In this document: positions 9,960-34,976 of the stretch, piece by piece
Layout: every line of letters begins with the position of its first letter
Position numbering within the stretch: the stretch's first letter is position 1
Assembly: GCA_963844035.1 (NCBI GenBank)
Contig: CAWJMT010000005.1
Span: 203,336 to 267,335, forward strand
Source: an uncultured Gemmatimonadales bacterium
GTDB taxonomy: Bacteria; Gemmatimonadota; Gemmatimonadetes; Gemmatimonadales; GWC2-71-9
Reading direction: 5' to 3'
DNA length: 64,000 nucleotides
Program-made: the position numbers and the translations under genes
The notes under the pieces: model-generated
Database searches by the model: none
Told to the model about the DNA's origin: nothing
Seen by the model: only the letters and a program-made list of their open reading frames with translations

Positions 9960-10025
9960 GTCCTCACCACACCCAAATAGCTAGATCATCCGACGCATGA
10001 TGCGGTGCCGCCGCACCCCAATTAG

Positions 10026-10082
10026 GTAAATCCACTTTCATCCCGCCGACGGATGTACCCCGGCGCCCAGCGCGGACAGCTT
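10026..10082 (+). promoter_or_regulatory. shared promoter motif copy 1 (upstream of ice-binding gene 1)
   Basis: GTAAATCCACTTTCATCC-N7-GGATG-N21-CAGCTT. Confidence 0.75.
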
Positions 10083-10121
10083 GTAAGGAATCTCTGTTCA
10101 CATCAACCGCTGGGAGCAACC

Positions 10122-11093
10122 ATGTATTCTCTGCCACGACTGACGGCCCGACTCGCCGTCGCTGCCTCGTTTGCCGCGCTGCTGACCGCAGCGTGTAGCC
10201 CCGACTCCAAAGACGTCTCCTCACTTTCCGGCCCAACCCTGTCCGCGGCCCGCCAGGCCGGCGGTGGGGCAGCGGCGTCGGACTTCGTGGTGCTCGCAAA
10301 CGCTGGGGTGACCTGCACCGACGGGACCATTAACGGCAGCGTGGGCACCTTCCTCGCTCCGCCGACCGGTGCGTTCACCAATACCCGGTGCGTGATCACG
10401 GGGACGAGTCACCTCGGCGACGCAGCGGCCGTCGCGGCCTACAACGCCTATCGCACCGAGTACGCAGCGCTCGCGCCCGTACTGGGGGACTGCGACGCCG
10501 CCCATACCTTGCCGAGCACGATCGCGGCCTCCCTGACGCTGGCGCCCGGTGTCTACTGCACCGGTGCGGCATTGACGGCAACGGACGTCACGTTGACCCT
10601 TGACGCGGGTGGTAACCCCAACGCGACCTGGCTGTTCAAGATCGGGTCGAGCGGCACGGCCGGCACGGGCGCCCTCACGGGCACCAACTTTTCGGTGATC
10701 ATGGCCGGCGGCGGGCAGGCGTGCAACGTGACGTGGTGGGTCTCTCAGGCCGCGACGATCACGACGAGCATCGCCACTCCGACGACCTTCTCGGGCAACA
10801 TTCTGGCGGGAGCGGCTATCACCCTGACCCAGGAGATCTTCAACGGCAACGCGTGGGCAGGAGCTTCCGGGGTCGGCGACGTGACGATGACCGGCACGAC
10901 GATCAACGGCTGTGCGGACGGCGCCGCTGACAACGGCAAAGACTGCCATAGGAAGGGCCACCACCACAAGAACCATCACGACAAGGGCCACCACCACGAC
11001 AAGCACCACGACAAGCACCACGATTCCAAGGGCCACGACTCCAAGGGCCACGACTCCAAGGGCCACGACTCCAAGCACTCGGGCCGCTACTAG
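10122..11093 (+). CDS. DUF3494 ice-binding-like lipoprotein with His/Lys/Asp-rich C-terminal tail
   Basis: Lipobox LTAAC; LAPGVYC, LTLDAGGNPNATWLFKIG, NVTWWV, FSGNILA. Confidence 0.85.
   Translation: MYSLPRLTARLAVAASFAALLTAACSPDSKDVSSLSGPTLSAARQAGGGAAASDFVVLANAGVTCTDGTINGSVGTFLAPPTGAFTNTRCVITGTSHLGDAAAVAAYNAYRTEYAALAPVLGDCDAAHTLPSTIAASLTLAPGVYCTGAALTATDVTLTLDAGGNPNATWLFKIGSSGTAGTGALTGTNFSVIMAGGGQACNVTWWVSQAATITTSIATPTTFSGNILAGAAITLTQEIFNGNAWAGASGVGDVTMTGTTINGCADGAADNGKDCHRKGHHHKNHHDKGHHHDKHHDKHHDSKGHDSKGHDSKGHDSKHSGRY
10953..11078 (+). repeat. coding tandem repeats (12-nt CACGACAAGCAC and 15-nt TCCAAGGGCCACGAC) encoding a His-rich tail
   Basis: KGHHHKNHHDKGHHHDKHHDKHHD(SKGHD)3SKH. Confidence 0.85.
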
Positions 11094-11109
11094 CCCCCGC
11101 GGAGAACGA

Positions 11110-11138
11110 CGCGGAGGGGCGCAGTCCCGCCCCTCCGC
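11110..11138 (+). terminator. GC-rich hairpin after ice-binding gene 1
   Basis: GCGGAGGGGCG-CAGTCC-CGCCCCTCCGC; no U-tract. Confidence 0.45.
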
Positions 11139-11168
11139 GGCACTCCAGGCCTGACGTTGGGAGGACGC

Positions 11169-11264
11169 ATGAGTGATCCCAGGAAAACTTTCATGCTCTA
11201 CGCCCTGATCCTCGTCATTATGTCGATCGGCGCGGTGGTGTCCGCGTCCGCCTGGCGGTGGTGA
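11169..11264 (+). CDS. 31-aa single-pass membrane peptide (not in ORF track)
   Basis: GGAGG SD, MSDPRKTFMLYALILVIMSIGAVVSASAWRW*. Confidence 0.55.
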   Translation: MSDPRKTFMLYALILVIMSIGAVVSASAWRW

Positions 11265-11441
11265 TGACGGATGGTACACGAGCCCCGGCGCACCCCTCAG
11301 GTTGCCCGGTTGTTGGGAGGAGGTGGGCGGCCAAGACCGCCCTCTTTCTTTTCAACCGGCAGGGATGACACAGGGAGACACCTACCTCAAAGGAGCTAGT
11401 GCGTTCGGGCGACAACCGTCTCGCGGCGTCGCCCTTCGTTT

Positions 11442-11498
11442 CTAAATCCTCTTTCGTCCGCCTGAGGGATGGGCGCTGAAGCACGCGCCAGCGAGGTT
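11442..11498 (+). promoter_or_regulatory. shared promoter motif copy 2 (upstream of ice-binding gene 2 / ompA)
   Basis: CTAAATCCTCTTTCGTCC-N7-GGATG-N21-GAGGTT. Confidence 0.75.
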
Positions 11499-11584
11499 TG
11501 AGACACTTGGGCGAGGAAGTTTCCGACCGCCACACGGATCCCGGGATGTATTGGCAGGGACACGAAATACTTCGGAGGCAGCAA

Positions 11585-12580
11585 ATGTTCACTCTTTCCC
11601 GACACATGGCTCGACTCCTCGTCATCGTCCCGCTCGCCGTGGCGCTTGCCGCTGCGTGCGAGCACACCGAAGGCCCACCGGTTGCCGGTCAATTGCTGGC
11701 CATCACGGTCACGCCCAACCCGGTCACCCTGCCCCCCAGCGGCCCCCAGCAGTTCGCTGCCGCGGGCACCGACATCACGGGCGCGGTCGTTTCCATAACG
11801 CCGGTGACCTGGTCCGTCGTGGCGAGCGGGGGAACCATCAACAGCAGCTCGGGTTTGTTCACCGCGGGTGCGACGCTCGCGACGTTCCCCAGTACGGTGC
11901 GGGCGTGCAATAGCCTCGGTGACACGTGTGGCTTCGCGACCGTGATCGTAGCCAACACCGCCCCGGTCGGGCCAACCCTGGGAACGGCGGCGACCTACGG
12001 GATCCTGGCCGGCGCGTCGGTCACCTGTGCCGGCGCTCCGGGCACCATCAACGCCGATGTGGGCATCAGCCCGGGCAACACGCTCACGGGCTTCCCGCCG
12101 TGCACGATCACCGGCGTCCAGCACCTCGGGGACGCGACCGCGCTCACGGCGCAGAACGACCTCACCGCGAACTACAACGCGCTCGTCGCCCTGAATTGCA
12201 CCAGCACCATTGTCGCCGATCTGGGCGGCACGACGATCACGCCGGGTGTGTATTGCGGCTCGTCGTCGGTGGCAGTGACGGGCACCCTGACGCTCGACGG
12301 CCAGGGCAACGCCAACGCGCTGTTCGTGATCAAGGCCGGGTCCACGCTCACGACCGGCACGGGCGCGAATATCGCGCTCACCAATGGCACCCAGGCGAAG
12401 AACGTGTGGTGGCAGGTCAGCAGCTCCGCGACGCTCGGGACCGGCACGACGTTCCGAGGCAACATTATCGCGTTAACGACCATCACCCTCGCCGGCACCG
12501 CCAACATGACCGGCAGGGCCTTGGCGCGTAACGGGTCCGTGAGTTTGGCGGCCACCGGCAACACCATCACACTGCCGTAG
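11585..12580 (+). CDS. Ig-like plus DUF3494 ice-binding-like lipoprotein
   Basis: GGAGG SD; LAAAC lipobox; LGTAATYGILAG, DLGGTTITPGVY, LTLDGQGNANALFVIK, KNVWWQVSSSATLG, GRALARNGSVSL. Confidence 0.9.
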   Translation: MFTLSRHMARLLVIVPLAVALAAACEHTEGPPVAGQLLAITVTPNPVTLPPSGPQQFAAAGTDITGAVVSITPVTWSVVASGGTINSSSGLFTAGATLATFPSTVRACNSLGDTCGFATVIVANTAPVGPTLGTAATYGILAGASVTCAGAPGTINADVGISPGNTLTGFPPCTITGVQHLGDATALTAQNDLTANYNALVALNCTSTIVADLGGTTITPGVYCGSSSVAVTGTLTLDGQGNANALFVIKAGSTLTTGTGANIALTNGTQAKNVWWQVSSSATLGTGTTFRGNIIALTTITLAGTANMTGRALARNGSVSLAATGNTITLP

Positions 12581-12679
12581 GCGTCCGTTCGCACGCTGGC
12601 GCGGGAGCCGGAGACCAATCCGGTCGCCGTCTCCCGCACCCGCCGGAAGCCGTGACTTTACACAGATTGGGGAGAAGAC

Positions 12680-13725
12680 ATGCGTGATCAAATGCTGAAG
12701 AGTGTGCGAACGCTGGCGGCGTTCCTGCCGGTGCTGGTGCTGGCGCAGCCGGTGGCGGCCCAGCAGGCGGCCCATCGCGAAGGCAGCTGGGAATTCAGCC
12801 TGGGCGGCGGCGCGATGTTCGCTCGACAACGGACCTCGCGACCTATCTCGGGAGCGCAGGGTTCGCCGACAACGCCGACCCGAGTGGCACCGTGCCCGGC
12901 GGGGTGGTGCGCTTGGGCTACAACATCGACAAGCACCTCGGGTTCAGCGGCGGTGCCGGATTTGGCACCGGGTCCGGCGTGAAGTACCTGACGCCGTTCG
13001 GCGACTTCACCTACACGATCAACCTGAACGCGAAGACGAGCCCCTTCCTCACCGGCGGCACGCAGTTCACCCGCATCACCGGCAACGACCGCGTCACACA
13101 CCCCGTCTGGGGCGGGCGCGTCGGCCTCGGTGTCCGGCACATGCTCAGCGAGAACCTGGCGCTGCGGCTCGAGGCCCGGGCGGGGTTCGAGCACTACGCG
13201 GAGATTGCCGGGACCCAGATGAACCCTGTCGTGACGCTGGGCATCTCGTACTTCACCGCCGGCCGCCAGCCCCCGGTCGCCGTGGTGCCGCCGCCGTGTC
13301 CGGTGTGTGCGCACGCGCGGGTGGATACCGTGTGGCGGACGACGCCGGCGCCGGCCCCCATCACCATCGTGCTTCGCGATACGCTGGTGCTCGAGGGCGT
13401 CAACTTCGACTTCGACTCCTCGGCCCTGACGCCCGAGTCCCACTGGGTGCTCGACCGCGTGGCGCAGGAGATGCTCAAGCCCGAGTGGGTGAACACCCGC
13501 TGGGAGATCGCGGGTCACACGAGTAGCATCGGCACGCACGAGTACAACATGGCGCTGTCGCAGCGCCGGGCTGAGGCCGTGCGGGCGTACCTCGTGTCGC
13601 GCGGTGTCCCGAACACCCGGCTGACCCCGAAAGGGTACGGCGAGACGAGCCCCATGTACCCGAACGACAATGAGGGGCGCAACTGGCGGAACCGGCGCGT
13701 GGAGCTGCGGCGCATCAAACCGTAA
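12680..13725 (+). CDS. OmpA family outer-membrane protein (beta-barrel plus OmpA_C), frameshifted
   Basis: GVNFDFDSS, IAGHTSSIG..YNMALSQRRAEAV, GYGETSP, NRRVE. Confidence 0.9.
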
Positions 13726-13746
13726 CGCCCAACGCAGTCTGATCGA

Positions 13747-13786
13747 CGTCGAGCCTCGTTCCGGACCATCGGAACGAGGCTCGATG
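13747..13786 (+). terminator. 17-bp inverted repeat between ompA and kaiC
   Basis: CGTCGAGCCTCGTTCCG-GACCAT-CGGAACGAGGCTCGATG. Confidence 0.55.
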
Positions 13787-13856
13787 TATGTTCGGGGTGG
13801 GGGCGCTACCGTTCGAGGACCACCATTTGTTAGGGCCACTGTGCGCTGGTGAGTGC

Positions 13857-15429
13857 ATGACCGACAACCGTTCGTAGCCGCACGCCGACGCCGACGCAAC
13901 GAGCCGGAAACGGGAGCCGGTCTCCCAGGCGCCCGCTCGCCAAGGCCCCGACCGGCATCCCGGGGCTCGATGAGATCACCAACGGAGGCCTGCCCCGCGG
14001 GCGGCCCACGCTGGTGTGCGGCGGCGCCGGCTGCGGCAAGACGCTGCTCGCCATGGAATTCCTCGTGCGCGGCGCGCTCGACTACAACGAGCCGGGCGTC
14101 TTCATGTCGTTTGAGGAGACCGCCGAAGACCTGGTGGAAAACGCCCGGTCGCTCGGTTTCGACCTGCAGCGGCTGAGCGCCCGCCGGCGGCTGCTGCTCG
14201 ATCACGTGCGCCTCGAGCGCACCCAGCTGACGGAGGCCGGCGAATACGATCTCGAGGGGTTGTTCATCCGGCTGGGCCACGCGATCGATTCGATCCGCGC
14301 CAAGCGGGTCGTCCTGGACACCATCGAGCTGCTCTTCTCCGGGCTCTCCGACGCGTCTGTGCTGCGCGCCGAGCTGGCCCGGCTGTTTCGGTGGCTCAAG
14401 GCGAAGAAGGTCACGGCCATTGTGACGGGCGAGCGGGCGGGCGATCGCCTGACGCGCCACGGTCTCGAGGAGTTCGTTTCCGACTGCGTGATCGTGCTCG
14501 ATCACCGGGTGACCGAGCAGAGCGCCACCCGGCGGTTGCGTATCGTCAAGTATCGCGGCTCGGGGCACGGCGGCAACGAGATGCCGTTCCTGATTGACGA
14601 CCATGGCGTGTCGGTACTGCCGATCACTTCGCTGGGACTCGCGCACCAGGCGTCCACCGCACACGTGTCCACCGGGGTGGCCGGGTTGGACGGGATGTTT
14701 GGAAAGAAGGGATACTTTCGCGGCAACAGCGTGCTCGCGTCGGGAACGGCGGGCACCGGCAAGTCCAGCTTGGCGGCCCACTTTGTGGCGGCCGCGTGCC
14801 GGCGCGGAGAGCGCTGTCTGTACTTCGCCTTCGAGGAATCGCCGAGCCAGATCATGCGCAACATGCGGTCGATCGGCATCGCCCTCGAGCCCTGGATACG
14901 CCGCGGCCTGCTGCGCGTGCACGCCGAGCGGCCGACGGCCCTCGGCCTGGAAGCGCACCTGGTGGCGATGCACCGGCTCATCGACCAATGGCAACCCCGG
15001 GTAGTCATCGTGGACCCGGTCACCAACCTGATCGCGGTCGGCAGCGAGCTCGAAGTGAAGGCGATGCTCGCGCGGCTCATCGATTTCATGAAGCTGCGGC
15101 AGATCACCGCGCTCTTTACCTCCCTGACCGAGGGCGGCGGCGCGGCCGAACGCACCGACCTGGGCGTGTCGTCGTTGATGGACATCTGGATGCTGCTCGG
15201 GAACCCGGAGGCGAACGGCGAGCGCAACCGGACGATCCAGATCGTCAAGGCCCGCGGCATGGCGCACTCGAACCAGGTCCGCGAGTTCGTGATGAGCGAC
15301 CGCGGCATCACGCTGGTGGACATCAGCCGCCGCGCCGACGGGAGCGTAGCCATCGGGGCGGCCCGCGGTGCGCAACAACAAGCGCGTGCCGGCGATCCCA
15401 AGCCCAGGCGCGGGCGCCGGGTCGAATGA
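13857..15429 (+). CDS. kaiC: circadian clock protein KaiC-family double-domain ATPase (indel just after ATG)
   Basis: [14 protein letters not shown], Walker A GGAGCGKT and [38 protein letters not shown] at the phosphosite position. Confidence 0.93.
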
Positions 15430-15728
15430 AGAACGGAGCGCGCCGGACTTGGCGGCTGCGGCTGTACGTGGCGGGGCAGACGCCAAAATCGATCGCCGCC
15501 CTGGCCAATCTGACGCGCCTGTGCGAGGGCCACCTCGCCGGCCTATACCGCATCGAAGTGATCGACCTGGTGAAGCAGCCACACCTGGCGCGCCGGGACG
15601 ACATCGTCGTGCTCCCGACCCTGGTGCGACAGCTGCCGCCGCCGATCCGCAAGATCATCGGCGATCTGTCGAACGAGGAGCGGGTGCTAGTCGCGTTGGA
15701 GATGCTGCCGCATGATGACACGAAGTAG
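15426..15728 (+). CDS. kaiB: circadian clock protein KaiB
   Basis: [49 protein letters not shown] overlap with kaiC. Confidence 0.93.
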
Positions 15729-15740
15729 GCAACGCTCGCC

Positions 15741-16910
15741 GTGACGAAGAGACGCAAGGCGCCGCGCCGCCGCTCTCCGGCTCGACTGGCCAAGCTGCAG
15801 ACCCGGCTCCGAGCGGCCGAGGACACCCTGCGTGCCCTCCGCGTCGGAGACGTCGATGCGCTGGTGACCACCCGCGGCGGGGACGAGCATGTGATCACGC
15901 TCGATGGTGCCGACCTCCCCTACCGCATTCTGCTGGACCAGATGTTCGCCGGCGCGGTCACGCTGACGCCGGACGGTGTCGTCATCTACTGCAATACCCG
16001 GTTTGCCGACATCGTGCGGACGCCAATTGCACGCGTCCTCGGCTCGGCGATGAGCCGCTTTGTGCCGCCCTCTGAGCGGCCAACCCTCGAGGCGCTGCTC
16101 GCACGGGGGCTGGAGGGCCGCGCGGGGAGCGAGCTGGAGCTCCGGGTTGGCGATGGCGCCCGGGTGGCGGTCTCGGTCACTTTCGCTCCCCTGCGGTTGG
16201 CGGGGAGCGCCGGGGTCAGCGGCGTGATCGGCGTGGTCGTGGATGCGACCGAGCGGAAACAGCAGGAGGATCTCCGTTCCCGGCTGATCGAGCAGGTGAT
16301 GACCGCGCAGGACGAGGAGCGGCGGCGGATCGCCCGTGAGCTCCACGATGAGACCGGGCAGTCGCTCACCGCGATGTTGGTGGGGCTGCGGACGATCGAG
16401 GAGTGCAGGACCGCAGCGGAGGCAGCCGGGCTGGCGCAGCACCTGCGCGCGGTCGTCGCCCAAACGCTCGTGGACGTCGGGCGGCTCGCGCGGGGACTGC
16501 ACCCGAGCGTCCTCGACGATCTGGGGCTCGCCGCGGCCGTGACCAACCAGGCGCACGATCTCGAGGAAATGCACGGAATCGCCGTGGACGTGCGCATCGA
16601 GGGACTCGATGCCGAAGCGTTGCCGCCCCTGCTGCAGACGACGGTGTACCGCCTCGTCCAGGAGGCGCTGACCAATGTGGCACGACATGCCAAGGCACGG
16701 CGGGCGACAGTGCGGCTGGTGCGAGACGAGGCGACGGTCGAGCTGCGCGTGCAGGATGACGGCATCGGCTTCGCTGCGCGAAATCAACGGGGCCTCGGCC
16801 TGCAAGGCATGCGGGAGCGCGCCGCCCTGCTCGGCGGCTCGGTCGCGATCGAGTCGCCCCCGGGAGGCGGGACGACCGTCGCGGTCCGCTTTCCCGTGCG
16901 CGGCGTCTAG
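15741..16910 (+). CDS. PAS-domain sensor histidine kinase (HisKA_3/NarX type)
   Basis: PAS domain, ERRRIARELHDETGQ, QEALTNVARHA, DDGIGF, GLGLQGMRER. Confidence 0.92.
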   Translation: MTKRRKAPRRRSPARLAKLQTRLRAAEDTLRALRVGDVDALVTTRGGDEHVITLDGADLPYRILLDQMFAGAVTLTPDGVVIYCNTRFADIVRTPIARVLGSAMSRFVPPSERPTLEALLARGLEGRAGSELELRVGDGARVAVSVTFAPLRLAGSAGVSGVIGVVVDATERKQQEDLRSRLIEQVMTAQDEERRRIARELHDETGQSLTAMLVGLRTIEECRTAAEAAGLAQHLRAVVAQTLVDVGRLARGLHPSVLDDLGLAAAVTNQAHDLEEMHGIAVDVRIEGLDAEALPPLLQTTVYRLVQEALTNVARHAKARRATVRLVRDEATVELRVQDDGIGFAARNQRGLGLQGMRERAALLGGSVAIESPPGGGTTVAVRFPVRGV

Positions 16911-16915
16911 CACGC

Positions 16916-17578
16916 ATGCCGAAAATCCGCGTGCTCGTCGCCGACGACCACACCGTCCTCCGGGCCGGCCTGACGCTGCTCATCAACGCTCAGTCCGATA
17001 TGGAAGTGGTGGGCGAAGCCGCCGACGGCGCCGAAACGGTGAGCCGGGCGCGGGACCTCGGGTGCGACGTCGTCCTCCTGGACCTCACCATGCCCGGCTC
17101 CTCCAGCACCGCGGTCATCGGATGGCTGAGGCGACTGGACCCAATGCCGCGCATTCTCGTGCTCACCGGGCACGACGATCCGGCCTACCTGCGCTCCGCG
17201 CTCCGGGCCGGCGCGTCCGGTTACATCGTCAAGAGCGTGGCGGACGTCGACCTGTTGGCCGCGATCCGCGTTGTTTACGACGGCGGCAGTTTCGTACGGT
17301 TGACGCGTTTCGGCGAACCGACGGGGGGGGATGTGGTCCGGCGTGGCTCCGGCGACTCGCCGGCTGTTGCGCCGTCCCGGCCGCTCAGCCGGCGGGAGGT
17401 CGAGGTGCTGCGACTCCTGGCGCAAGGGCATACGAATCAAGAGGTTGCGGATCGGTTGACCGTGAGTACCAAGACCGTCGAAACGCACCGCCGGCGCCTG
17501 ACCGACAAGCTGGGGCTCAAGAGCCGCGCCGAGCTGTTCAGCTTTGCCGTCGAGGCTGGCCTGTTCGAGAAGTCGTAG
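16916..17578 (+). CDS. NarL/LuxR family response regulator (RR1)
   Basis: ADDH, VLLDLTMP, LTG, IVK, LSRREVEVL...KTVETH HTH. Confidence 0.93.
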   Translation: MPKIRVLVADDHTVLRAGLTLLINAQSDMEVVGEAADGAETVSRARDLGCDVVLLDLTMPGSSSTAVIGWLRRLDPMPRILVLTGHDDPAYLRSALRAGASGYIVKSVADVDLLAAIRVVYDGGSFVRLTRFGEPTGGDVVRRGSGDSPAVAPSRPLSRREVEVLRLLAQGHTNQEVADRLTVSTKTVETHRRRLTDKLGLKSRAELFSFAVEAGLFEKS

Positions 17579-17708
17579 CGGCTCGACGGTGTCAGGGATT
17601 TTCCCGACGCCTGTCTCTATCGCGTTACAGTTCCCCTATACCCACCGCCCCCCAGTTTGCTGTAGTATTCATGCTCTGTGAGCGCGTGTCACGCGGGCCG
17701 CGCCCGAA

Positions 17709-18425
17709 TTGCCCCGCGAAGATCACTCAAGGATCCTGCAACTGCCGAAACGCCCTCAGGTCGAACGCATCCAGGTGGTGGTCATCGACGACAACCGCCT
17801 CGTACGCGAGGGGCTCAAGGCCCTGCTCGATGCGATGCCAGACTTGAAAGTTGTGGCGACCGCGGAAGATGTGACCGACGGACTGCGCCAGGTGCGGGAG
17901 TTGACACCCCAGGTCGTGCTGCTGGATGCGACGATGGACAACGGCGACACCGCTCGCTGCGTGGAAACGCTCCGCAAGACCACCCCGACAGCCAAGGTGA
18001 TCGTGATGGACCTGCTGGCCGGGCCTGAAGACGTGATCGAGTTCGTCAAGGCGGGGGCCAACGGATTCGTCATGAAGGACGCGACGCTCGACGATCTCGT
18101 GCGCACGATTCGATCGGTCGCCGAGGGAGCGGACGTGGTTCCCCCCGCCTTGACCGGGACGCTGCTGTCGCACATCGCGCAACAGGCGGTGACCCGTCAT
18201 CTGCCGGGCGTCGAGCAGGCCGTGCGCATGACGAAGCGTGAGCGGCAGATCATGGATTTGATTGCGGAGGGTCTGAGCAACAAGGAGATCGCGCAGCGGC
18301 TCAACATTGCGACCTACACGGTCAAGAGCCACGTGCACAACATTCTGGAAAAGCTGGCGTTGCACAGCCGGCTGCAGATCGCCGCGTATACCCACAAGGC
18401 CGGAGCTGTTCCCGCCGCGACGTAG
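17709..18425 (+). CDS. NarL/LuxR family response regulator (RR2)
   Basis: IDDN, VLLDA, MTKRERQIMDLIAEGLSNKEIAQRLNIATYTVKSHVHNIL. Confidence 0.92.
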   Translation: MPREDHSRILQLPKRPQVERIQVVVIDDNRLVREGLKALLDAMPDLKVVATAEDVTDGLRQVRELTPQVVLLDATMDNGDTARCVETLRKTTPTAKVIVMDLLAGPEDVIEFVKAGANGFVMKDATLDDLVRTIRSVAEGADVVPPALTGTLLSHIAQQAVTRHLPGVEQAVRMTKRERQIMDLIAEGLSNKEIAQRLNIATYTVKSHVHNILEKLALHSRLQIAAYTHKAGAVPAAT

Positions 18426-18462
18426 TCCCCTTCGATTGGCCGACTGTACTGCGAACGCGCGG

Positions 18463-18881
18463 GTCAGGCCCCGCGTGGGCCGCCGTTTGCGGCAACGACT
18501 TTTTTCGCCGTGCGTGGGCCACCGTTTGCGGATGCGACTTTTCGCCGTGCGACTGCCTGCCCGGGCAACGGGTAACGCAAACGAAAACTTCGCAGGTCCC
18601 GTGAGGGCGAAGTCCATGTTCAGCTGCTTCAGCTGCGTCTCGATCGCCCGATCGACGTCGGGCACCTGCGCGGGGTTGTCGGTGACGACAAGGATGTGGG
18701 TGATGTTGGTTTCGAGCACGATCCGGCCGGTCCACAGGCGTCCTCCACGCAGCGCCGCCGACTGGGCCCGGCGGAGCAGGGCCTTGATCTTCTTGAACCG
18801 CATCTCGGGCTGAGGCGGATTGAGCTCATAGGCGTAGACCCAGCGGGTCTTGGCCGCTCGCCGCGGTCGCTTGAGAACCAT
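18463..18881 (-). CDS. hypothetical basic protein (indel in a poly-A run within its C-terminal repeat)
   Basis: AGGAGG SD before ATG; C-terminal duplicated (K)V(A/V)(S/A)ANGGPR repeat ends at TGA in a shifted frame. Confidence 0.55.
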
Positions 18882-19121
18882 CGAACTCCTCCTTCTCGTA
18901 TTCATCAGCTATTCATCAGCCGCGCACTTCCGGCGTAATGCTGTCAGTACTCGCAGTACGCGCGCAGCATCGCAGCCTCTCCTACCAGATCGCAACCTAT
19001 CGCGCCCGTGTTGTGTGGCGCCATCCATCATGAGGACGACACTCACCTCGGTCGAATAGACCTCCATCCTACGACGTAGTCCGTTCGATGCGCAGTGACC
19101 CCGTCCGCTCGGCAAAAATCT

Positions 19122-19178
19122 CTAACTCATTTCTCATCCCATCTGGGGATGTTCCCCGCGGGCCGGCATGCGCAGGTT
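19122..19178 (+). promoter_or_regulatory. shared promoter motif copy 3
   Basis: CTAACTCATTTCTCATCC-N7-GGATG-N21-CAGGTT. Confidence 0.75.
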
Positions 19179-19286
19179 GCGTGCAGGGATTTGGCAGTCC
19201 ACAGCGGGACGAATTGCGGGAGCACACATGAACCCCATCACACAGAGCAGCAGCACGGGAACGATGCTGTACGCGGGAGACCGGGT

Positions 19287-19508
19287 ATGAAGCCGTTAGC
19301 GCTGGCGGGAATCGTCCTGGCGGTACTTGGCGGCTTCATCGTGTTCAGAGGCATGAGCTACGGCTCTGAGCACAACGTGATGAAGGTCGGCGACCTGCAG
19401 GTCTCCACCAAAGAGCAGCACACAATTCCCGCCTGGATGGGCGGCGTAGCACTCGTTGCCGGCGTGCTGTTGGTCGCCGCCGGCGTTGGCAGACGGCGTA
19501 GCGCATAG
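19287..19508 (+). CDS. small two-TM membrane protein (DUF3185-like)
   Basis: MKPLALAGIVLAVLGG...VGDLQV...IPAWMGGVALVAGVLL. Confidence 0.7.
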   Translation: MKPLALAGIVLAVLGGFIVFRGMSYGSEHNVMKVGDLQVSTKEQHTIPAWMGGVALVAGVLLVAAGVGRRRSA

Positions 19509-19520
19509 GGAGATAAGAAC

Positions 19521-19670
19521 ATGATTTGGACACTCGCACTCGTCTTGGTCATTCTCTGGGCCCTTGGCCTGGTGACGTCGTACACGTTCGGGGGAATGAT
19601 TCACCTGCTCCTGGTCGTGGCGCTCGTGGTGATCGTCATTCGTGCCCTCCAAGGTCGAAGGGTTGTGTAG
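19521..19670 (+). CDS. lmo0937-family small membrane protein (49 aa, not in ORF track)
   Basis: GGGAG SD; MIWTLALVLVILWALGLVTSYTFGGMIHLLLVVALVVIVIRALQGRRVV*. Confidence 0.85.
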   Translation: MIWTLALVLVILWALGLVTSYTFGGMIHLLLVVALVVIVIRALQGRRVV

Positions 19671-19689
19671 GTCTCCGGACGGAGGACGT

Positions 19690-20319
19690 ATGTCGAAGAC
19701 ATTGCTCACAGCGGTCCTGGTGCTTGGCGTTGCGGCGTGTTCGCCCGCCTCCGGCAAGAATGCGGAGGGCGGCGGCGCGTCCGCGTCACGCACCCTGGTC
19801 GAGGGGACGCGGATCGAAGCGACGACTGGGGATGCGCTGTCCTCGCGCCACAACGAGGCGGGCGAGACGCTCGCGGCAACCGTGAGCGCTGACGTCGAGG
19901 ATGGGAGCGGCCACGTGGTCATTCCCGCGGGTTCCGCGGTGGCACTGCGGATCGTGCAGCTCGAACCGGCCACCAACAAGAGTCAGGACGATGGGAAGAT
20001 CGCGCTCGAGGCGACTGCTGTGACGGTCCGCGGGCAGGTCTATAGCATGAACGCGCGGCTCGACCCCGTCACGCACCAGCTGCACGGGCGGGGTGTCACG
20101 ACCGGCGAAGCCGAGAAGGTTGGTGCTGGCGCGGCGATCGGAGCGGTGGCGGGTCGGGTGTTTGGCGGCGACACCAAGGGCGCGGTGATCGGCGGCGCGA
20201 TCGGCGCCGGTGCGGGAACGGCCGTGGCCGTGCATTGGGCGAGCCGGGACGTGGTCGTCCCGGTTGGGACGCGCGTCACGTTTTCGCTGCCGCAGTCGCT
20301 CACCATATCGACTCGTTAG
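19690..20319 (+). CDS. glycine-zipper lipoprotein
   Basis: GGAGG SD, VAAC lipobox, GAGAAIGAVAG...GAVIGGAIGAGAG. Confidence 0.8.
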   Translation: MSKTLLTAVLVLGVAACSPASGKNAEGGGASASRTLVEGTRIEATTGDALSSRHNEAGETLAATVSADVEDGSGHVVIPAGSAVALRIVQLEPATNKSQDDGKIALEATAVTVRGQVYSMNARLDPVTHQLHGRGVTTGEAEKVGAGAAIGAVAGRVFGGDTKGAVIGGAIGAGAGTAVAVHWASRDVVVPVGTRVTFSLPQSLTISTR

Positions 20320-20352
20320 AGCGAATCTCTCATCCAATCAAGGGAAGACGTC

Positions 20353-20655
20353 ATGATCCGTGTTGCAACGATCTTGCTGGCCGCGCTGTGCACCGCCGGC
20401 GCCACGCAGCTCCTGGGTCAACAGCCCATCCTCGCACCGGTGGTGGAAGGGCGCATTCCGCAGGCGAGCGCGCCCGGCGCACCGTTGCCCGGCCCGCGTC
20501 TCGCGCCGGAGTTGCGCAGCTACGAGCCGACCTTTGCCGACAACCGCGCCACGGGGCAGCCGTTGCTCATGAGCAGCGGTTCCAATAACACCTTCGTGAT
20601 CTCGACGCTGTCGCTCGTGCTGATCGCCGTCATCGTGGTGCTGCTGGTGGCGTAG
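20353..20655 (+). CDS. small secreted/membrane-anchored hypothetical protein
   Basis: Signal peptide plus C-terminal TM helix. Confidence 0.65.
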   Translation: MIRVATILLAALCTAGATQLLGQQPILAPVVEGRIPQASAPGAPLPGPRLAPELRSYEPTFADNRATGQPLLMSSGSNNTFVISTLSLVLIAVIVVLLVA

Positions 20656-20708
20656 TCGGAGCGGGGCGTGCCGGTTGAACGCCCCGATCGCACACTAACC
20701 CATTGGTA

Positions 20709-20765
20709 CTAAGTCGAATTTCATCCTGCCGGGCGATGTGCGTTTGCCGCGTACGCGGGCAGATT
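20709..20765 (+). promoter_or_regulatory. shared promoter motif copy 4 (upstream of ice-binding gene 3)
   Basis: CTAAGTCGAATTTCATCC-N7-CGATG-N21-CAGATT. Confidence 0.75.
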
Positions 20766-20853
20766 TGCATCAGGCGGTGAACTCGGAGACAGAGTTCCCG
20801 GGTTAGCTGCATGACTCTCGCAGTCTTCATCAAGCAGTTGAAGGAGGAACCCC

Positions 20854-21675
20854 ATGAACAAACTTCAGAACGCTTCGCGGGTGTTGTTGAGCGCGCTACT
20901 CCTGGCCGGGTTTGCGGCCGCATGTGGCGACGACGACACAACCGCCCCAACCAACCCATCCCCAACCACCCCGGGCGCAGGCCCAGGCACGGGCGGCGGC
21001 GGCCATGGTCCAGCGCCCGTCGTTCTGGGAGCGGCCGGCACGTATGTGATTCTGGCAAAGTCCGGAGTCTCCAACGTTCCGACGTCCGCGATTACCGGGA
21101 ATATTGGCTTGAGTCCGGCCGCGGCGAGCTTCATCACCGGGCTGCCACTCACCATTGACGCGGGCGGGACCTTTGCGACCACGCCGCAGGTGACGGGGAA
21201 CGTCTACGCAGCCGACTATACCTCTCCAACTCCGTCGAACCTCACGACGGCGGTCAGCGATATGCAAACCGCATACACCGACGCCGCCGGACGACCGACG
21301 CCTGATCACACGGAGCTGGCGAGTGGCAACATTGGCGGGCTGACGCTCCCGCCCGGCCTCTACAAATGGTCGAACACGGTTCTCATCCCGACCAACGTCA
21401 CGCTTACCGGTGGCGCCAACGATACCTGGATCTTCCAGATCGCGGGCGGTCTGACCCAGTCCTCCGCAGCGCAGGTTATCCTGAGCGGTGGCGCACAGGC
21501 CCAGAACGTGGTCTGGCAGGTCTTCGGTGCGGTGGATATCGGAACGACCGGGCACATGGAAGGTCGGATCCTGTCGCAAACGTCGATCGTGTTGCGCACT
21601 GGCGCGGTGGCCAACGGCAAGCTGTTGGCACAGACCGCGGTCACGCTGGCCGGTAACACGGTTGTAAACAAGTAG
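20854..21675 (+). CDS. DUF3494 ice-binding-like lipoprotein
   Basis: AGGAGG SD; FAAAC lipobox; LGAAGTYVILAKSGVS, AVSDMQTAYTDAAGR, IGGLTLPPGLYKW, WIFQIAG, NVVWQV, GKLLAQTAVTL. Confidence 0.93.
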   Translation: MNKLQNASRVLLSALLLAGFAAACGDDDTTAPTNPSPTTPGAGPGTGGGGHGPAPVVLGAAGTYVILAKSGVSNVPTSAITGNIGLSPAAASFITGLPLTIDAGGTFATTPQVTGNVYAADYTSPTPSNLTTAVSDMQTAYTDAAGRPTPDHTELASGNIGGLTLPPGLYKWSNTVLIPTNVTLTGGANDTWIFQIAGGLTQSSAAQVILSGGAQAQNVVWQVFGAVDIGTTGHMEGRILSQTSIVLRTGAVANGKLLAQTAVTLAGNTVVNK

Positions 21676-21732
21676 GCACGATCGGTAGAACCTGCTCCCG
21701 CAGGGGATGCAGCTTGATGGGGAGCAGCTAAG

Positions 21733-21759
21733 GAGGCCGTCGCGAGACGGCCTCTTTTT
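21733..21759 (+). terminator. intrinsic terminator
   Basis: GAGGCCGTC-GCGA-GACGGCCTC-TTTTT. Confidence 0.85.
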
Positions 21760-21789
21760 GTTGCTGGAAACCTCCCCACACCAAAGTAG

Positions 21790-21846
21790 CTAAGTCGCAA
21801 TTCACTCCGCTGGCCGATGTTCCCCCGGTGCACCGGCAGGCACATT
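21790..21846 (+). promoter_or_regulatory. shared promoter motif copy 5
   Basis: CTAAGTCGCAATTCACTC-N7-CGATG-N21-CACATT, ATG 5 nt later. Confidence 0.72.
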
Positions 21847-21851
21847 GGTGC

Positions 21852-22364
21852 ATGACGCGCAATGGCGATTGGCTGCTCTGGCCCGTGAGGACGCTGCTTG
21901 CGGGAATGCTGGGTCTGGGCCTGGTGGCGTGCACCAGTGCCGTCGCACGGGTGCCTGAGGGTCCTGACGCCGTCCGCACGACGGGCGGCATTCGCGCTGT
22001 GGACCGGACGCTGGTGGCGGGCACGCTGGTCGAGGCGACCATCACCCGCACGCTGTCCTGGCGCCGCAACACGCCGGGCGAGCCGCTGACGGCGATCGTG
22101 AGCGCGGACGTCCGCAATGCGCGCCGCTGGGTGGTGATTCCGGCCGGAAGCGCGCTGGCGCTGAGGGTCCCGCGCCGGCCGTCGACGACGATGCAGCTGG
22201 ATGTGGTGTCCGTGACGGTCCGGGGGCGGGCGAATCCAGTGCGCGCCACGATGGACGTCGCGCCGGCGCCGGCCGGTGACGTGGCGGTGGAATCGGGGGC
22301 GCGAGTCCTGTTCGTCCTGCCGGAGGGGTTCACGGCGGCGGTGCGGCACGAGACCATCCCATGA
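21852..22364 (+). CDS. hypothetical lipoprotein, paralog of 19690-20319 without the glycine zipper
   Basis: LVAC lipobox; shares RTLV.GT..EAT, VSADV, VVIPAGS.ALR, VTVRG. Confidence 0.7.
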   Translation: MTRNGDWLLWPVRTLLAGMLGLGLVACTSAVARVPEGPDAVRTTGGIRAVDRTLVAGTLVEATITRTLSWRRNTPGEPLTAIVSADVRNARRWVVIPAGSALALRVPRRPSTTMQLDVVSVTVRGRANPVRATMDVAPAPAGDVAVESGARVLFVLPEGFTAAVRHETIP

Positions 22365-22606
22365 ATTTCAGACGCCTGATGTCGCTGGTGGGTGTGGTGC
22401 TCACCTCGCTGCTGATGATCGCGCAGACGGTGCAAAGCTTCGTGCTCATCGCGTCCGATGCGAAAGCGGCGAAGCAAGCGGAGAAGGTGCGCAAGCCGAA
22501 TCGCCGCCTTCCTCCGAAGACGCTAGTTCATCTCACTGCTCGTTACGACGAATGGAGGGCGTTATGTCAGGCAGGATGCTCACGGGGGTGCTCGCGCTGG
22601 GTCTGA
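22361..22606 (+). CDS. small hypothetical membrane protein (end uncertain)
   Basis: ATGA overlap with upstream gene; N-terminal hydrophobic helix. Confidence 0.4.
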   Translation: MNFRRLMSLVGVVLTSLLMIAQTVQSFVLIASDAKAAKQAEKVRKPNRRLPPKTLVHLTARYDEWRALCQAGCSRGCSRWV

Positions 22607-23074
22607 TGGCGTGTTCACGTGCCCCGGTCAAGGAGAACGTTGTCGTCGACGCAGCCTGTGGTCGAGACGCAGAGTCTTGCCGTGTCCGCCGCGGTGCTCA
22701 CGACGCTGCAGGCGCTGATCCACTTCGCCGATAACCAGGCGGGCTTGAGCGATTCGGCGCGGACGATCCTGGACGACAAGGTCGCCGTGTTCCGGGCGAA
22801 CCCGAAACTGCGGATCGTCATCGTGGGGTACGCGAGCCAGCCCGGCACCGAGGCCTACAACCTCAAGCTCGGCACCCGGCGCGCCGAATCGGCCAGGAGC
22901 CACCTGGTGGCACAGGGTATCGCCGAGGACCGGATCGATATCGAGACCCAGGGCGAGAGCCAGCGGTTGGTTGAGGGCTCCGGGGAGGCGGCCGACGCGG
23001 AGAACCGCCGCGACCAGTTCCAGGTGATGGCCCTCACGCACAGCGACGTGTTTCTGGCGTCGCCCGAGAAATAG
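22564..23074 (+). CDS. Pal-like OmpA_C lipoprotein (frameshifted)
   Basis: GGAGG SD, LMAC lipobox; IHFADNQAGL, GTEAYNLKLGTRRA, GES, NRRD. Confidence 0.8.
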
Positions 23075-23215: not shown

Positions 23216-24458
23216 ATGAAGGGTTCGGCTCAGGACAACACCGTCGTCCGGTTTGAGATCGCCCCGCGCTCGATCGCGTGGATCCTGGCGACGATCGCGG
23301 GCGTGTGGTTGTTCTTCCAGCTCCGGGTGATCGTGCTGCTGGTGGTGGTCGCGCTCGTCCTCGCGGGCACCTTCAATCCGGTGGTCGAGTGGCTGGAGCG
23401 CCGCGGGCTCAAGCGGATCTACGGGCTCGTGCTGGTCTTTGTCGCGCTGCTGGTCGTTCACCTGCCTGCTCATCTTTTTCATGGTCCCGCCCCTCACCGA
23501 GCAGCTCACCCAGATTGTGAGCGACGCTCCGCAGCATCGCGAACGGTTGATCGCGTTGCTCCAGCAGCGCGATGCCACCGCTCCCCTCGCCCGAGCGATG
23601 CAGCACGCAGATCTCGCGAAGACGATCGCCCGCCTCGAGACGTACCTGGTGGAGTACGTGCCCCGCGCCGCCGTCGGGCTGGGATACGCGGTGACCACCC
23701 TGGTGCTGGCGTTCTATATCCTGGCGGACGGCAAGCGGACCCAGGGCACGCTGTACGCCATCGTGCCGCGCGGCTACCACATGCGGCTGGCGCGCATCAT
23801 CCAGAACATGGAGGTGATCGTCGGCGGCTACATGCGAGGCCAGCTCATCACGTCCGCGGCGGTCGGCGTGGTGACCTTTGTGCTCCTGGTGGCGTGCAAG
23901 GTCCCGAATGCATTGTCCCTCGCGCTGTTCGCAGCCCTGGTGGACGTGATCCCGTTCGTCGGCGCGGTGCTGGCGAGCGGTCCGGCCGTCCTGTCGGCGC
24001 TGTCCGTCAGCGTGCCCGTGGGCATGGTGGTGCTGGTGGTCCTGTTCGTCTACCAGGAATTCGAGAATCGCATCCTGGTTCCGAAGATCTATGGACGCGC
24101 GCTGCGGCTCTCACCAACGGTGGTCATTCTCGCGCTGCTGGCCGGCGGCATGCTGCTCGGCATCATCGGGGCGCTGCTCGCCCTGCCCATCGCGGCGGGG
24201 CTGCAGATGATGGTGGCGGAGCTGCGGGTGGACTTGCCTGGCGACGACAGTGACGACCGGGTGGCGCACGCCCGCGATGCGCAGACCGAGGCGACCTACG
24301 AACGCATGAGTGCCGGCGCCACGGCCCCGGAAGCCGGACGGATCGCGCGGAACCTCGCGCACGACATCCGGGACGCGGACGTCGTGGATGCCGCGAAGGA
24401 GATGGACGCGGCGAAGGCAAGGGAAAAGGAAATGGAAGCGGAGGGTGTTGGGCCATGA
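23216..24458 (+). CDS. AI-2E family transporter (frameshifted)
   Basis: Multi-TM; GGYMRGQL, DVIPFVG, QEFENRILVPKIYG, GALLALPIAA. Confidence 0.88.
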
Positions 24459-26582
24459 CCACCACCGCACGCGCCCCGAGGGCCAAGACCGGCCGGCGGG
24501 TGGAGGTCATCACCGACCTGAAGACCGGCGCCCTCCAGGATGCCATTCTCAACAGCGCCAACTTCTCGAGTATCGCCACCGACGCGAAGGGCGTGATCCA
24601 GATCTTCAACGTCGGCGCCGAGCGGATGCTGGGCTATGCGGCGGCCGAGGTGATCAACAAAATCACGCCGGCCGATATTTCCGATCCGCAGGAAGTGATC
24701 GCCCGCGCCAAGGCGCTCAGCGTCGAGCTGGGCACGCCGATTACGCCGGGCTTCGAGGCGTTGGTGTTCAAGGCCTCGCGCGGCATCGAGGACATCTACG
24801 AGCTGACCTATATCCGCAAGGACGGCAGCCGGTTCCCGGCAGTGGTGTCGGTCACGGCGCTGCGGGACGCCCAGGACGCCATCATCGGCTATCTGCTGAT
24901 CGGCACCGACAACACCGCGCGCAAACAGGCGGAAGAGGCGTTGCTCAAAGCGGGCGCCCTGCAGAGCGCGATCTTCCACAGCGCCAACTTCTCCAGTATC
25001 GCGACGGACGCGAAGGGCGTGATCCAGATCTTCAACGTCGGCGCCGAGCGGATGCTGGGCTATGCGGCGGCCGAGGTGATGAACCAGATCACGCCGGCCG
25101 ACATTTCCGATCCGCAGGAAGTGATCGCCCGCGCCAAGGCGCTCAGCGTCGAGCTGGGCACCCCGATTACGCCGGGGTTCGAGGCCCTGGTCCACAAGGC
25201 GTCGCGCGGCATCGAGGACATCTATGAGCTGACCTACGTCCGCAAGGACGGGAGCCGGTTCCCGGCGGTCGTGTCGGTCACGGCGCTGCGCGATGCGCAG
25301 GACGCCATCATCGGCTATCTGTTGATCGGCACCGACAACAGCGCGCGCAAGGAGGTCGAAGAGGAGCGCGAGCGCCTGGATCAGGTGCTGCGGGAGAAGA
25401 ACATCGAGCTGGAGAGCTCCAAGTCCGTGGCGGAAAAGGCCAACCGCGCGAAATCGGAGTTTCTGTCCAGCATGAGCCATGAGCTGCGCTCACCGCTCAA
25501 TGCGATCCTCGGGTTCGCCCAGCTGATGGAATCCGACGCCACGCCGGCCACGCCGTCCCAGAAAACGAGCATCGACGAGATTCTTCGCGCGGGCTGGTAT
25601 CTCCTGGAGCTGATCAACGAGATTCTCGACCTGGCGCAGATCGAGTCCGGAAAGCTGTCATTGTCGCGGGAGCCGACGTCACTGGCCGACGTGATGCTCG
25701 AATGCCAGGCCATGATCGAGCCGCAGGCGCAAAAGCACGGCATCCGCATGACCTTCCCGCCGTTCGACGTCCCGTTGTTCGTTCAGGCCGATCGCACGCG
25801 GTTGAAGCAGGTGCTCATCAACCTCCTGTCCAACGCGGTCAAATACAACCAGCCGGGGGGAACGGTGGTGGTGGACTGCGTCGCCGCTACCCCGGACCGG
25901 GTTCGGATCAACGTCCGGGATACGGGCGCAGGGTTGCCTCCGGAGAAGCTGGCGCAGCTGTTCCAGCCGTTCAACCGCCTGGGCCAGGAGCGGGGCGCCG
26001 AGCAGGGGACCGGCATCGGCCTGGTGATGAGCAAGCGGCTGGTCGAGCTGATGGGCGGCGTGCTCGGTGTGGAGAGCAGCGTGGGAGTCGGCAGCGTGTT
26101 CTGGTGCGAGCTGGAGCGCGGCGGCGGCGCCGGAGATCGACGAGACGACACAGGCCCCCGCGGCCGCCGCCGGCGCGCAGGCTCAGCCCGGCGCGCCCGT
26201 GCACACGCTGCTGTACGTCGAGGACAACCCGGCGAACCTGAAGCTGGTCGAGCAGCTGATCGCCCGCCGCCCCACGCTGCGCCTGCTGACCGCGGTGGAC
26301 GGCAACCAGGGGATCCAGCTGGCGCGCGCCAATCTGCCGGAGGTGATCCTGATGGACATCAATCTGCCCGGCATCAGCGGTCTCGAAGCCCTGAAGATCC
26401 TGCGCGACGACCCGGCGACCGCGCACATTCCCATCGTCGCCCTCAGCGCCAATGCGATGCCACGCGACATCGAGAAGGGTCTCGAGGCGGGATTCTTCTC
26501 GTATCTCACCAAGCCGATCAAGATCAAAGAGTTCATGGAGGCGCTCGACGCGGCGCTGGAATCCGGGCACGCGCATGCTTGA
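24455..26582 (+). CDS. hybrid sensor kinase PAS-PAS-HisKA-HATPase-REC (frameshift near 26120)
   Basis: Two PAS repeats, MSHELRSPLN, NLLSNAVKY, DTGAG, GTGIGL; REC VEDN..LMDINLP..TKP in the next frame. Confidence 0.9.
24527..25348 (+). repeat. intragenic tandem duplication, 426-nt period (two near-identical PAS/PAC modules)
   Basis: AGCGCCAACTTCTC at 24554 and 24980; long identical stretches. Confidence 0.9.
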
Positions 26583-31260: not shown

Positions 31261-31967
31261 TCAGGCTTGACGCGCCACAGGTCCGGTGCACGGGTCGGCG
31301 CTCCGGGCAAACGTGTGCGCGGCGATCTGAAGCCGGCTGTGCAACGCCAGCTTTTCCAGAATGTTGTGCACGTGGCTCTTGACGGTGTACGTCGCGATAT
31401 TGAGCCGCTGGGCCATCTCCTTGTTGCTCAGACCCTCTGCAATCAAGTCCATGATCTGCCGCTCACGCCTCGTCATGTGCACGCGCCTGCTCGATGCCCG
31501 GCATGTGGTGCGTCACCGCCTGCTGCGCAATGTGCGACAGCAGCGTCCCGGTCAACGCGGGGGGGGCCACGTCCGCTCCCTGGCCGACCGATCGAACGGT
31601 GCGCAAGAGATCGTCCACCGTCGCGTCCTTCAGGATGAACCCGGTCGCTCCCGCCTTGATGAACGCGATGACGTCGTCCTGCACGGCATGCACGTCCATT
31701 AGGACCACCCGAGTCTCAGGCGCCAAGTCCTTGATTCTCTTGAGAGCGTCCCCCTTACCCAGGGCTGCGTTGACCACCGTGGCATGCGGCTGAGTCTCCC
31801 GAACCGAAGCCAGCCCCAATGTGACGCAGGCGGCGGTCGCGGCGACCTTGAAGTCCGGGTGCCCGTCCAGCAGGGCGGCGAGTCGCTCGCGCGCCAGACG
31901 ATTATCCTCGATCACCACCACGCGAACGGGTCCGGCCCCGAATGGTGAGGTCGTCTGACGAGTTCAT
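31261..31967 (-). CDS. NarL family regulator RR3, paralog of RR2 (frameshifted)
   Basis: IEDNRL, ALTGTLLSHIAQQAV, MTRRERQIMDLIAEGLSNKEMAQRLNIATYTVKSHVHNILEKL. Confidence 0.88.
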
Positions 31968-32657: not shown

Positions 32658-32760
32658 AGTGAAATCCTCCTTCATTTGTTCGGGTGTCAACTTCCCAGAA
32701 CAATGCCTCCGTGGGCCGCAGGGCGGTATCGTCCCGAAGGATGGAAAAGGACGTAACTCG

Positions 32761-33000
32761 TCAGCGCTTCTTCACAACGCCGGCGAATCCCACAAGAACA
32801 CCAGCAACGATCGCGACCCAGCCGAATACCACCGGAACCGTGCTCTGGGCGTGGACTTTACTCTTGAAGGGGCCGACATGGACGACTCCCTCGGACTGAA
32901 CGCGCGGTCCTTGCAACACAACGAACACGCCAAGTGCGACAATCAAGACTCCCGTGACCGTCAGGAGTCTCATGCCAGTGATTATGGTTGGACGCTTCAT
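32761..33000 (-). CDS. small two-TM membrane protein, paralog of 19287-19508
   Basis: GVLIVALGVFVV..VHVGPFK..TVPVVFGWVAIVAGVL. Confidence 0.7.
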   Translation of the reverse strand: MKRPTIITGMRLLTVTGVLIVALGVFVVLQGPRVQSEGVVHVGPFKSKVHAQSTVPVVFGWVAIVAGVLVGFAGVVKKR

Positions 33001-34795: not shown

Positions 34796-34976
34796 CTGAT
34801 CCTGCTGGGCAGAGTTCTCGACATTACGTATAGGTATGTCCGAACCACCCCCGGCAGGTATCGCTCAATGGGGGAATGGCCGAGCGACGTAGTCACTCGA
34901 ACGAAGTAGTTCTTCATGGCGAGGCGTCGCGACTATTATTGAAGCGGCGATCGCTATCCCCCTCTAGGAGGTCTGC

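Follow-up and report, generated by a model that had tools for sequence, protein, structure and literature searches.

The window analysed here, a stretch of 64,000 nucleotides from contig CAWJMT010000005.1 of an uncultured Gemmatimonadales bacterium, raises the question of which regulator reads a promoter element that recurs with fixed spacing ahead of its genes for DUF3494 proteins, and what that element controls. Our findings point to a composite site of about 44 bp, abutting a predicted sigma-70 promoter, that would be bound by the family of RR2, a response regulator encoded in the same window, and would activate a general-stress-like regulon with DUF3494 as an optional part; we put the probability of this reading at roughly 0.72. 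A preliminary description of the window had placed five copies on the + strand, at 10026, 11442, 19122, 20709 and 21790, and direct inspection of the sequence returned all five there with identical spacing. When both strands of the genome (39 contigs, 3.47 Mb, 84% complete) were searched, the full pattern gave exactly 5 matches, every one within this locus, and with leave-one-out matrices only 5 genome positions reached the score of the held-out copy, which was always among them. The copies lie upstream of all three DUF3494 genes, which were confirmed as PF11999, and they are intergenic as had been proposed, because the likely DUF3494 starts are 10122, 11585 and 20854; copy 1 overlaps an in-frame ATG further upstream, at 10053. 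The last hexamer of copy 5 does end 5 nt before the ATG at 21852, though this ATG is perhaps not where the gene really begins. The perfect dyad CATCC-N7-GGATG, said to be frequent at the core, occurs in only 2 of the 5 copies and is not conserved elsewhere. A refined matrix adds two weaker copies that had been overlooked, at window position 32756 (- strand) and at G000:C37:268919; the latter, the seventh copy (21 bits), is unlinked and lies between an open reading frame (ORF) that we take, by eye, to be CsbD-like and one for a small membrane protein resembling a protein that follows a site in locus L038. Separately, a degenerate copy-like sequence below the scoring threshold is visible at about 34850-34910 (- strand), upstream of a 586-aa ORF (34795-33035).

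The element extends well beyond this genome. A starting matrix that took in bases 1-31 of each of the five copies was applied to 78 RR2 loci (1.07 Mb) drawn from Gemmatimonadota, Ignavibacteria/Bacteroidota and a few other groups, and gave 88 matches against 3.7 in shuffled sequence. Refined matrices yielded 57 sites in a GC-rich set (30 of 56 RR2 loci) and 65 in an AT-richer set (18 of 22 RR2 loci), against 0.33 and 0 in shuffles, so that in RR2 loci the motif is far commoner than in shuffled DNA, as the preliminary description implied, and 112 of the 122 sites share the orientation of RR2. The consensus, (C)TCNYCC-N(A)AA-GG(A/T)-NTARNTCC-TTT-TTCATCC-N4-GRNSGAT, reaches about 14 nt further upstream than the pattern first described, and the whole signature spans about 70 bases. 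The inner C-G pair of the originally described dyad is present in 40% of the 57 GC-rich-set sites and in 9% of the 65 AT-richer-set sites; symmetry analysis resolves TCCTTT units in direct orientation with a separation of 10 bp (AT-richer set), a 25-bp separation between TCAYCC units, and TCATCC-N4-GRNSGA as an inverted arrangement. Judged by comparison of sequences, this is a composite cis-element conserved across phyla. Two known boxes were considered and set aside. The DosR box has the core GGA-N6-TCC, and the upstream unit here is GG(A/T)-N5-TCC; because its spacing is N5 rather than N6, a DosR-type dyad was dropped. For the NarL 7-2-7 box, the best inverted units have other spacings and the sequence is unlike the yeaR site.

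The bases downstream of the element provide the promoter geometry. At untrained positions, A occupies position 53 in 88% of the GC-rich and 75% of the AT-richer set, T occupies position 57 in 96% and 88%, respectively, and 72% of the AT-richer set has T at position 52; in that set positions 29-31 are T (98%), T (91%) and G (52%). A motif-first metagenome scan returned at least 133 stretches, of which 79 were used to count -10 elements; among the 80 distinct sites of these loci (79 among the matches listed), 67 have TANNNT at the predicted, untrained position. In AT-rich sites TTG or TTGACA, resembling a -35 element, lies 17 bp upstream of the -10, with literal TTGACA-17-TANNNT in the Ignavibacteria-class genomes G472 and G506; the window shows T-G-like remnants only. 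Since TANNNT occurs at an untrained offset with TTG 17 bp upstream, we read the last hexamer as the sigma-70 -10 and the GAT as adjoining the -35. The -10 elements of the window are weak (CANNNT or GANNNT), and their lack of the first T would fit activator-dependent promoters. The proximal dyad is centred at motif positions 20.5-22, or about -43.5 to -42, within the class II range of -41.5 to -44.5. The earlier suggestion of an activator-type site overlapping the -35 region of weak promoters thus gains support from the position of the site, the weak -10 elements and the canonical -35 and -10 elements of relatives. The same description had allowed for an alternative sigma factor, and this genome, in which the -10 begins with C or G instead of T and which holds 15 matches to sigma-70 region 2, lends that idea something. 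It is nevertheless disfavoured, because the downstream elements are canonical TTG(ACA)-17-TANNNT in AT-rich genomes; conservation also reaches to about -77, beyond sigma contacts, and none of the 15 region 2 matches lies on contig C5. Transcript data do not enter the argument: the 21 RNA runs, all available as contigs, hold at most 0.29 of the words, four were mapped (X2 and X3 are apparently the same data), and assembled contigs cover several target genes, but because they are silent on start, strand and level we conclude nothing from them.

Which protein reads the element was addressed by co-occurrence. Among 300 other genomes of the phylum, RR2 was matched in 62 and the exact pattern in 45; the pattern is found in 34 of the 62 RR2-positive genomes against 11 of the 238 RR2-negative ones, and two or more matches per genome in 19 of 62 against 0 of 238. 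Within the window's family the figures are 30 of 43 RR2-positive and 0 of 82 RR2-negative genomes, with a patchy distribution inside genera. A replicate in 150 genomes of the Ignavibacteria class, that of genome G365, which holds the Ignavibacteriaceae locus L080 and 17 strict sites, gave 22 of 35 against 3 of 115. Approached from the motif, 161 partly redundant loci (381 kb, among the matches listed) contain an RR2-family ORF in 29 cases, the commonest protein cluster, and no other transcription factor was recognised among their 45 commonest clusters. Of the adjacent NarL-type regulators previously put forward, RR2 is therefore the likely reader, as a family, and RR3 proves to be an RR2 paralog frameshifted in the assembly. 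RR1 has a complete receiver, is the canonical partner of the PAS kinase encoded beside it and neighbours RR2 in the window, and an RR1-like gene (at least 57% identity) stands in 10 of the 78 RR2 loci; RR1 was found in only 8 of the 34 genomes with both motif and RR2 and in 0 of the 161 motif-first loci, and the RR1 clade is accompanied by another dyad, which lies upstream of RR2, so that RR1 as the reader appears extremely improbable. The co-occurrence figures for regulators cover the linked RR1 and RR2, which leaves some room for an unlinked regulator sharing the distribution of RR2; taken together with the alternative-sigma promoter discussed above, we consider this very unlikely.

RR2 itself combines a PF00072 receiver with a PF00196 GerE helix-turn-helix, and its best solved relative is E. 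coli NarL (PDB 1a04, E 5.9e-34). Its closest relatives, 75-80% identical, come from Gemmatimonadales genomes, which makes this order the most likely one for the window. TVKSHVHN, its recognition helix, hardly varies between phyla. The receiver departs from the canonical form at the position aligned to the conserved Ser of NarL: Thr or Ser is found in 0 of 120 RR2-family rows, and over 122 aligned rows this T position is Asp in 78% and Gly in 20%, the only 2 Thr rows being RR1-type. The acidic pair, the phospho-acceptor Asp (97%) and the Lys (97%) are retained, and a bulky Leu or Met follows at T+1. Because the conserved Thr/Ser is absent, RR2 is by its sequence a pseudo-receiver protein, or atypical response regulator, under the definition given in the excerpted text of PMC12632262, which asks that one of five conserved residues be missing. 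The family is large, 7,368 of the 8,000 candidates scored reaching E <= 1e-50, the RR2 type having been verified for part of these only; the plasmid collection gave 18 records of at most about 40% identity and no RR2 ortholog among them. Many genomes carry 2-5 RR2 paralogs, often in tandem, that are distinguished by Asp or Gly at the T position and by RLQ or RLE in the last helix, and the site mixes direct and inverted units. These features, together with the BldM-WhiI precedent (PMC4125116, in the portion consulted), would suit a heterodimer, or two different RR2 paralogs, reading the asymmetric element. Against this, several motif genomes have a single RR2 match, such as G068 (3 sites) and G478 (8 sites), and the recognition helices of the paralogs are nearly identical, and we regard such pairing as rather unlikely. 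Two further features of RR2 surroundings were noted: in the window, two near-identical repeats of about 40 nt directly follow the RR2 stop codon (18475-18560), and in many relatives an unnamed family of about 105-115 aa with a WAYAY motif directly follows RR2 and a site (L034:2932-3249, L038:5004-5345). The window counterpart of this family runs from 18905 downward on the opposite (-) strand, in a frame that continues through RR2.

The inputs to RR2 appear to differ between clades. Homologs of the window kinase occur in 10 of the 78 RR2 loci, each beside an RR1-like gene, and RR2 usually has no adjacent kinase. Between RR1 and RR2 the window holds a second dyad, GTCRGG-N6-CCYGAC, at 17591-17608, whose strict pattern is found at one place in the genome; in relaxed form it precedes RR2 in 9 of 119 upstream regions, where shuffles give 2.5; all 9 belong to the closest relatives of RR2, usually with RR1 present. 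We propose this dyad as a candidate RR1 box, which would create a kinase-RR1-RR2 cascade. Relatives show a second partial copy of the dyad about 25-45 nt downstream. In another clade GGAACC-N15/16-GACTAA is found in 18 of the 119 upstream regions against 0.2 in shuffles, and we take it, from its consensus, to be an extracytoplasmic function (ECF)-like promoter. The loci concerned are L045, L046, L049, L050, L052, L054, L056-L062, L067, L009-L011 and L013, and in this clade RR2 often has no nearby site, or one site before an M48 protease gene. The element itself precedes RR2 in 8 of the 119 regions, mostly for second paralogs (1.8 in shuffles). From this arrangement we infer that RR2 output may be set mainly by its own transcription.

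The genes that follow the sites define the apparent scope of the regulon. First genes were chosen by a simple start-codon score for 121 of 122 sites, and family scans covered 54 hand-picked first genes and 7 window ORFs, with 43 proteins in a second scan. They include CsbD, YtxH, transglycosylase-associated, lmo0937, bacterioferritin and sll1863-family stress proteins, as well as B12 radical-SAM enzymes, M48 proteases, glycosyltransferases, Mla transporters, KaiC, RR2 paralogs and DUF3494; ferritin-like and OmpA genes sit deeper in operons led by a site. CsbD and YtxH are linked to sigma-B/RpoS stress regulons. In Listeria lmo0937 is sigma-B-dependent, according to passages of PMC2813243 and PMC7690807. 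The DUF3494 genes are unevenly represented: they occur in 27 of 62 RR2-positive against 12 of 238 RR2-negative genomes, so that 12 of the 39 DUF3494 genomes have no RR2 match, and in 7 of the 78 RR2 loci (two of three DUF3494 queries). Among the matches listed, the DUF3494 cluster is present in 12 of the 161 motif-first loci, and the RR2, lmo0937, CsbD and OmpA families are commoner beside these sites. A dedicated cold or ice response would be favoured by the enrichment of DUF3494 in RR2 genomes, by the site ahead of each of the three window genes and by three DUF3494 genes that follow sites in G365. Yet DUF3494 is found in only 19 of the 34 genomes with motif and RR2, the other 15 having no match, and most targets belong to other families, which makes such a response quite unlikely; because of these same two facts the regulon is broader than ice binding, and the label of an ice-binding-protein regulon cannot be kept. 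A general-stress-like regulon is the likelier designation on the predicted gene content. In G365, loci L301-L304 display two islands, each about 30-35 kb long, in which almost all operons have a site ahead of them, among these operons ones for PAS/CheR-type kinases, KaiC and an RR2 paralog.

Several observations weigh against activation of a general-stress-like regulon by RR2. Within the DNA examined, 30 of the 78 RR2 loci show no site, and 28 of the 62 RR2-positive phylum genomes have no exact match, the exact pattern catching 27 of 57 known sites. Eleven RR2-negative genomes carry one match each, against 3 of 301 in a reversed-pattern control, and 3 RR2-negative genomes of the Ignavibacteria class carry real-looking sites. 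Co-occurrence may in part be due to a single island that moves as a unit, and Fisher P values overstate the association because related genomes are not independent. The half-sites fit no single clean repeat, and no one half-site accounts for all columns. RR2 could still be phosphorylated, since its Asp and its Lys are each kept in 97% of rows, and receiver substitutions of this kind need not abolish phosphorylation, as stated in part of PMC12632262. Finally, the term general stress is predicted from gene families, through guilt by association.

With these points acknowledged, the mechanism that we favour is one in which RR2 oligomers would occupy a series of TCC/GGA half-sites between about -77 and -34, and the unit closest to the promoter (about -42 to -43.5) would recruit RNA polymerase in class II fashion, compensating for the weak -10 elements, CANNNT in this genome. 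In the clade of the window, RR2 transcription would be set through RR1 at the 17591 dyad, together with the PAS kinase and KaiC/KaiB, and in the other clade through an ECF-type promoter. A more ambitious proposal, which we offer tentatively and hold to be somewhat doubtful, is that in Gemmatimonadota and Ignavibacteria RR2 could act, independently of phosphorylation, as the master regulator of a general stress response not yet described, filling the role of sigma-B/RpoS by directing the housekeeping polymerase to as many as 17 promoters in a genome, or more, with interchangeable inputs (a KaiC/KaiB-kinase-RR1 relay or an ECF sigma factor) and with DUF3494 proteins as general stress proteins. 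No description of the element or its regulator was found in the full-text literature, a search for which most subscription journals, supplements and regulon databases were outside scope, and the passages of PMC8510549 and PMC9957290 give no description of the element; as far as searched, the cis-element appears to be previously undescribed, and its candidate regulator is well supported by comparative sequence analysis. For two abundant and almost unstudied bacterial groups this predicts which regulator acts, where it binds and how the promoter is laid out, down to the exact bases to mutate. It also connects conserved proteins of unknown function (CsbD, lmo0937, YtxH, DUF4398 and several unnamed small membrane proteins), suggests a candidate output for non-cyanobacterial KaiC/KaiB, and makes available a large natural family in which to study how Thr-less pseudo-receivers are switched. 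DUF3494 clusters should not by themselves be taken as evidence of ice adaptation.

The features of the locus are collected in Table 1. The His/Asp/Lys-rich repeat tail of DUF3494 protein 1 (10940-11090) is possibly metal-binding. The label DUF3185, considered for the 73-aa membrane protein, was unsupported by Pfam or NCBIfam. Frameshifts, which may be assembly errors, affect the OmpA gene (12680-13725), an AI-2E transporter gene (23216-24458), a PAS hybrid kinase gene (24455-26582) and RR3 (31261-31921). An Rfam search of window positions 9500-35500 gave nothing at the gathering score and one sub-threshold match (27 vs 50 bits), away from any site.

Table 1. Copies of the element, predicted promoter parts and neighbouring genes, in window positions.
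Feature	Position	Strand	Remarks
Site 1	10012..10082	+	activator element 10012-10055; predicted -35 10054-10059, -10 10077-10082, start near 10089; 40.8 bits
DUF3494 (PF11999) protein 1	10122..11093	+	lipoprotein-like, His-rich tail
Site 2	11428..11498	+	predicted -35 11470-11475, -10 11493-11498; 37.8 bits
DUF3494 (PF11999) protein 2	11585..12580	+	
OmpA-family protein	12680..13725	+	frameshifted in assembly; co-transcription from site 2 likely
KaiC-like double ATPase	14014..15429	+	PF06745; true start probably further upstream
KaiB-like protein	15426..15728	+	PF07689
PAS / HisKA_3 histidine kinase	15741..16910	+	
RR1, canonical NarL/LuxR-type response regulator	16916..17578	+	not likely reader of the element
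Second dyad, GTCRGG-N6-CCYGAC	17591..17608	+	
RR2, NarL/LuxR-family, pseudo-receiver	17709..18425	+	Asp at conserved Thr position; exact start codon uncertain
Site 3	19108..19178	+	predicted -35 19150-19155, -10 19173-19178; 34.5 bits
Predicted target operon	19287..20655	+	four genes downstream of site 3
73-aa membrane protein	19287-19508	+	no curated family
lmo0937-family protein	19521-19670	+	
Gly-zipper lipoprotein	19690-20319	+	
100-aa protein	20353-20655	+	
Site 4	20695..20765	+	predicted -35 20737-20742, -10 20760-20765; 45.9 bits
DUF3494 (PF11999) protein 3	20854..21675	+	
Site 5	21776..21846	+	predicted -35 21818-21823, -10 21841-21846; 40.5 bits
Predicted targets	21852..23074	+	lipoprotein-like ORF (to 22364), OmpA-domain ORF (22619-23074)
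RR3, RR2 paralog	31261..31921	-	split over two frames
Site 6	32700..32770	-	predicted -10 32705-32700; precedes 39-aa Lys/Arg-rich ORF 32657-32538; 28.3 bits

Comparison with known systems places the proposed arrangement among familiar ones. E. coli NarL at yeaR, in the passages of PMC10853779, binds a site centred at -43.5 that adjoins the sigma-70 -35, and it resembles RR2 in fold family, in this position and in the class II-like activation proposed here; it differs in that NarL uses a 16-bp 7-2-7 palindrome and needs phosphorylation by NarX, whereas the element here spans about 44 bp of other sequence and RR2 is without the conserved Ser/Thr. ComA of B. subtilis, as described in part of PMC4797271, is a NarL-family activator of composite inverted and direct repeats with a proximal unit driving class II activation, an arrangement that the element here may resemble, but it is a quorum-sensing regulator whose half-site is TTGCGG, in contrast to the TCC/GGA-based units here, and it is absent from the structural matches of RR2. 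The WhiI-BldM pair offers a third parallel, in that RR2 falls under the atypical-regulator definition, usually has no adjacent kinase and has paralogs that could pair (PMC12632262 and PMC4125116, both in excerpt). Unlike that pair, as far as the excerpts describe it, RR2 keeps the D, DD and K residues and has Asp or Gly at the T position, and the phyla, site and targets are different. With the sigma-B and RpoS regulons the predicted targets share CsbD and YtxH, by the background given above, as well as ferritin-like and small membrane proteins. To these lmo0937 is added, on the portions of PMC2813243 and PMC7690807 consulted. The logic of control would be different, with housekeeping sigma-70-like promoters and an activator site here in place of alternative-sigma promoters.

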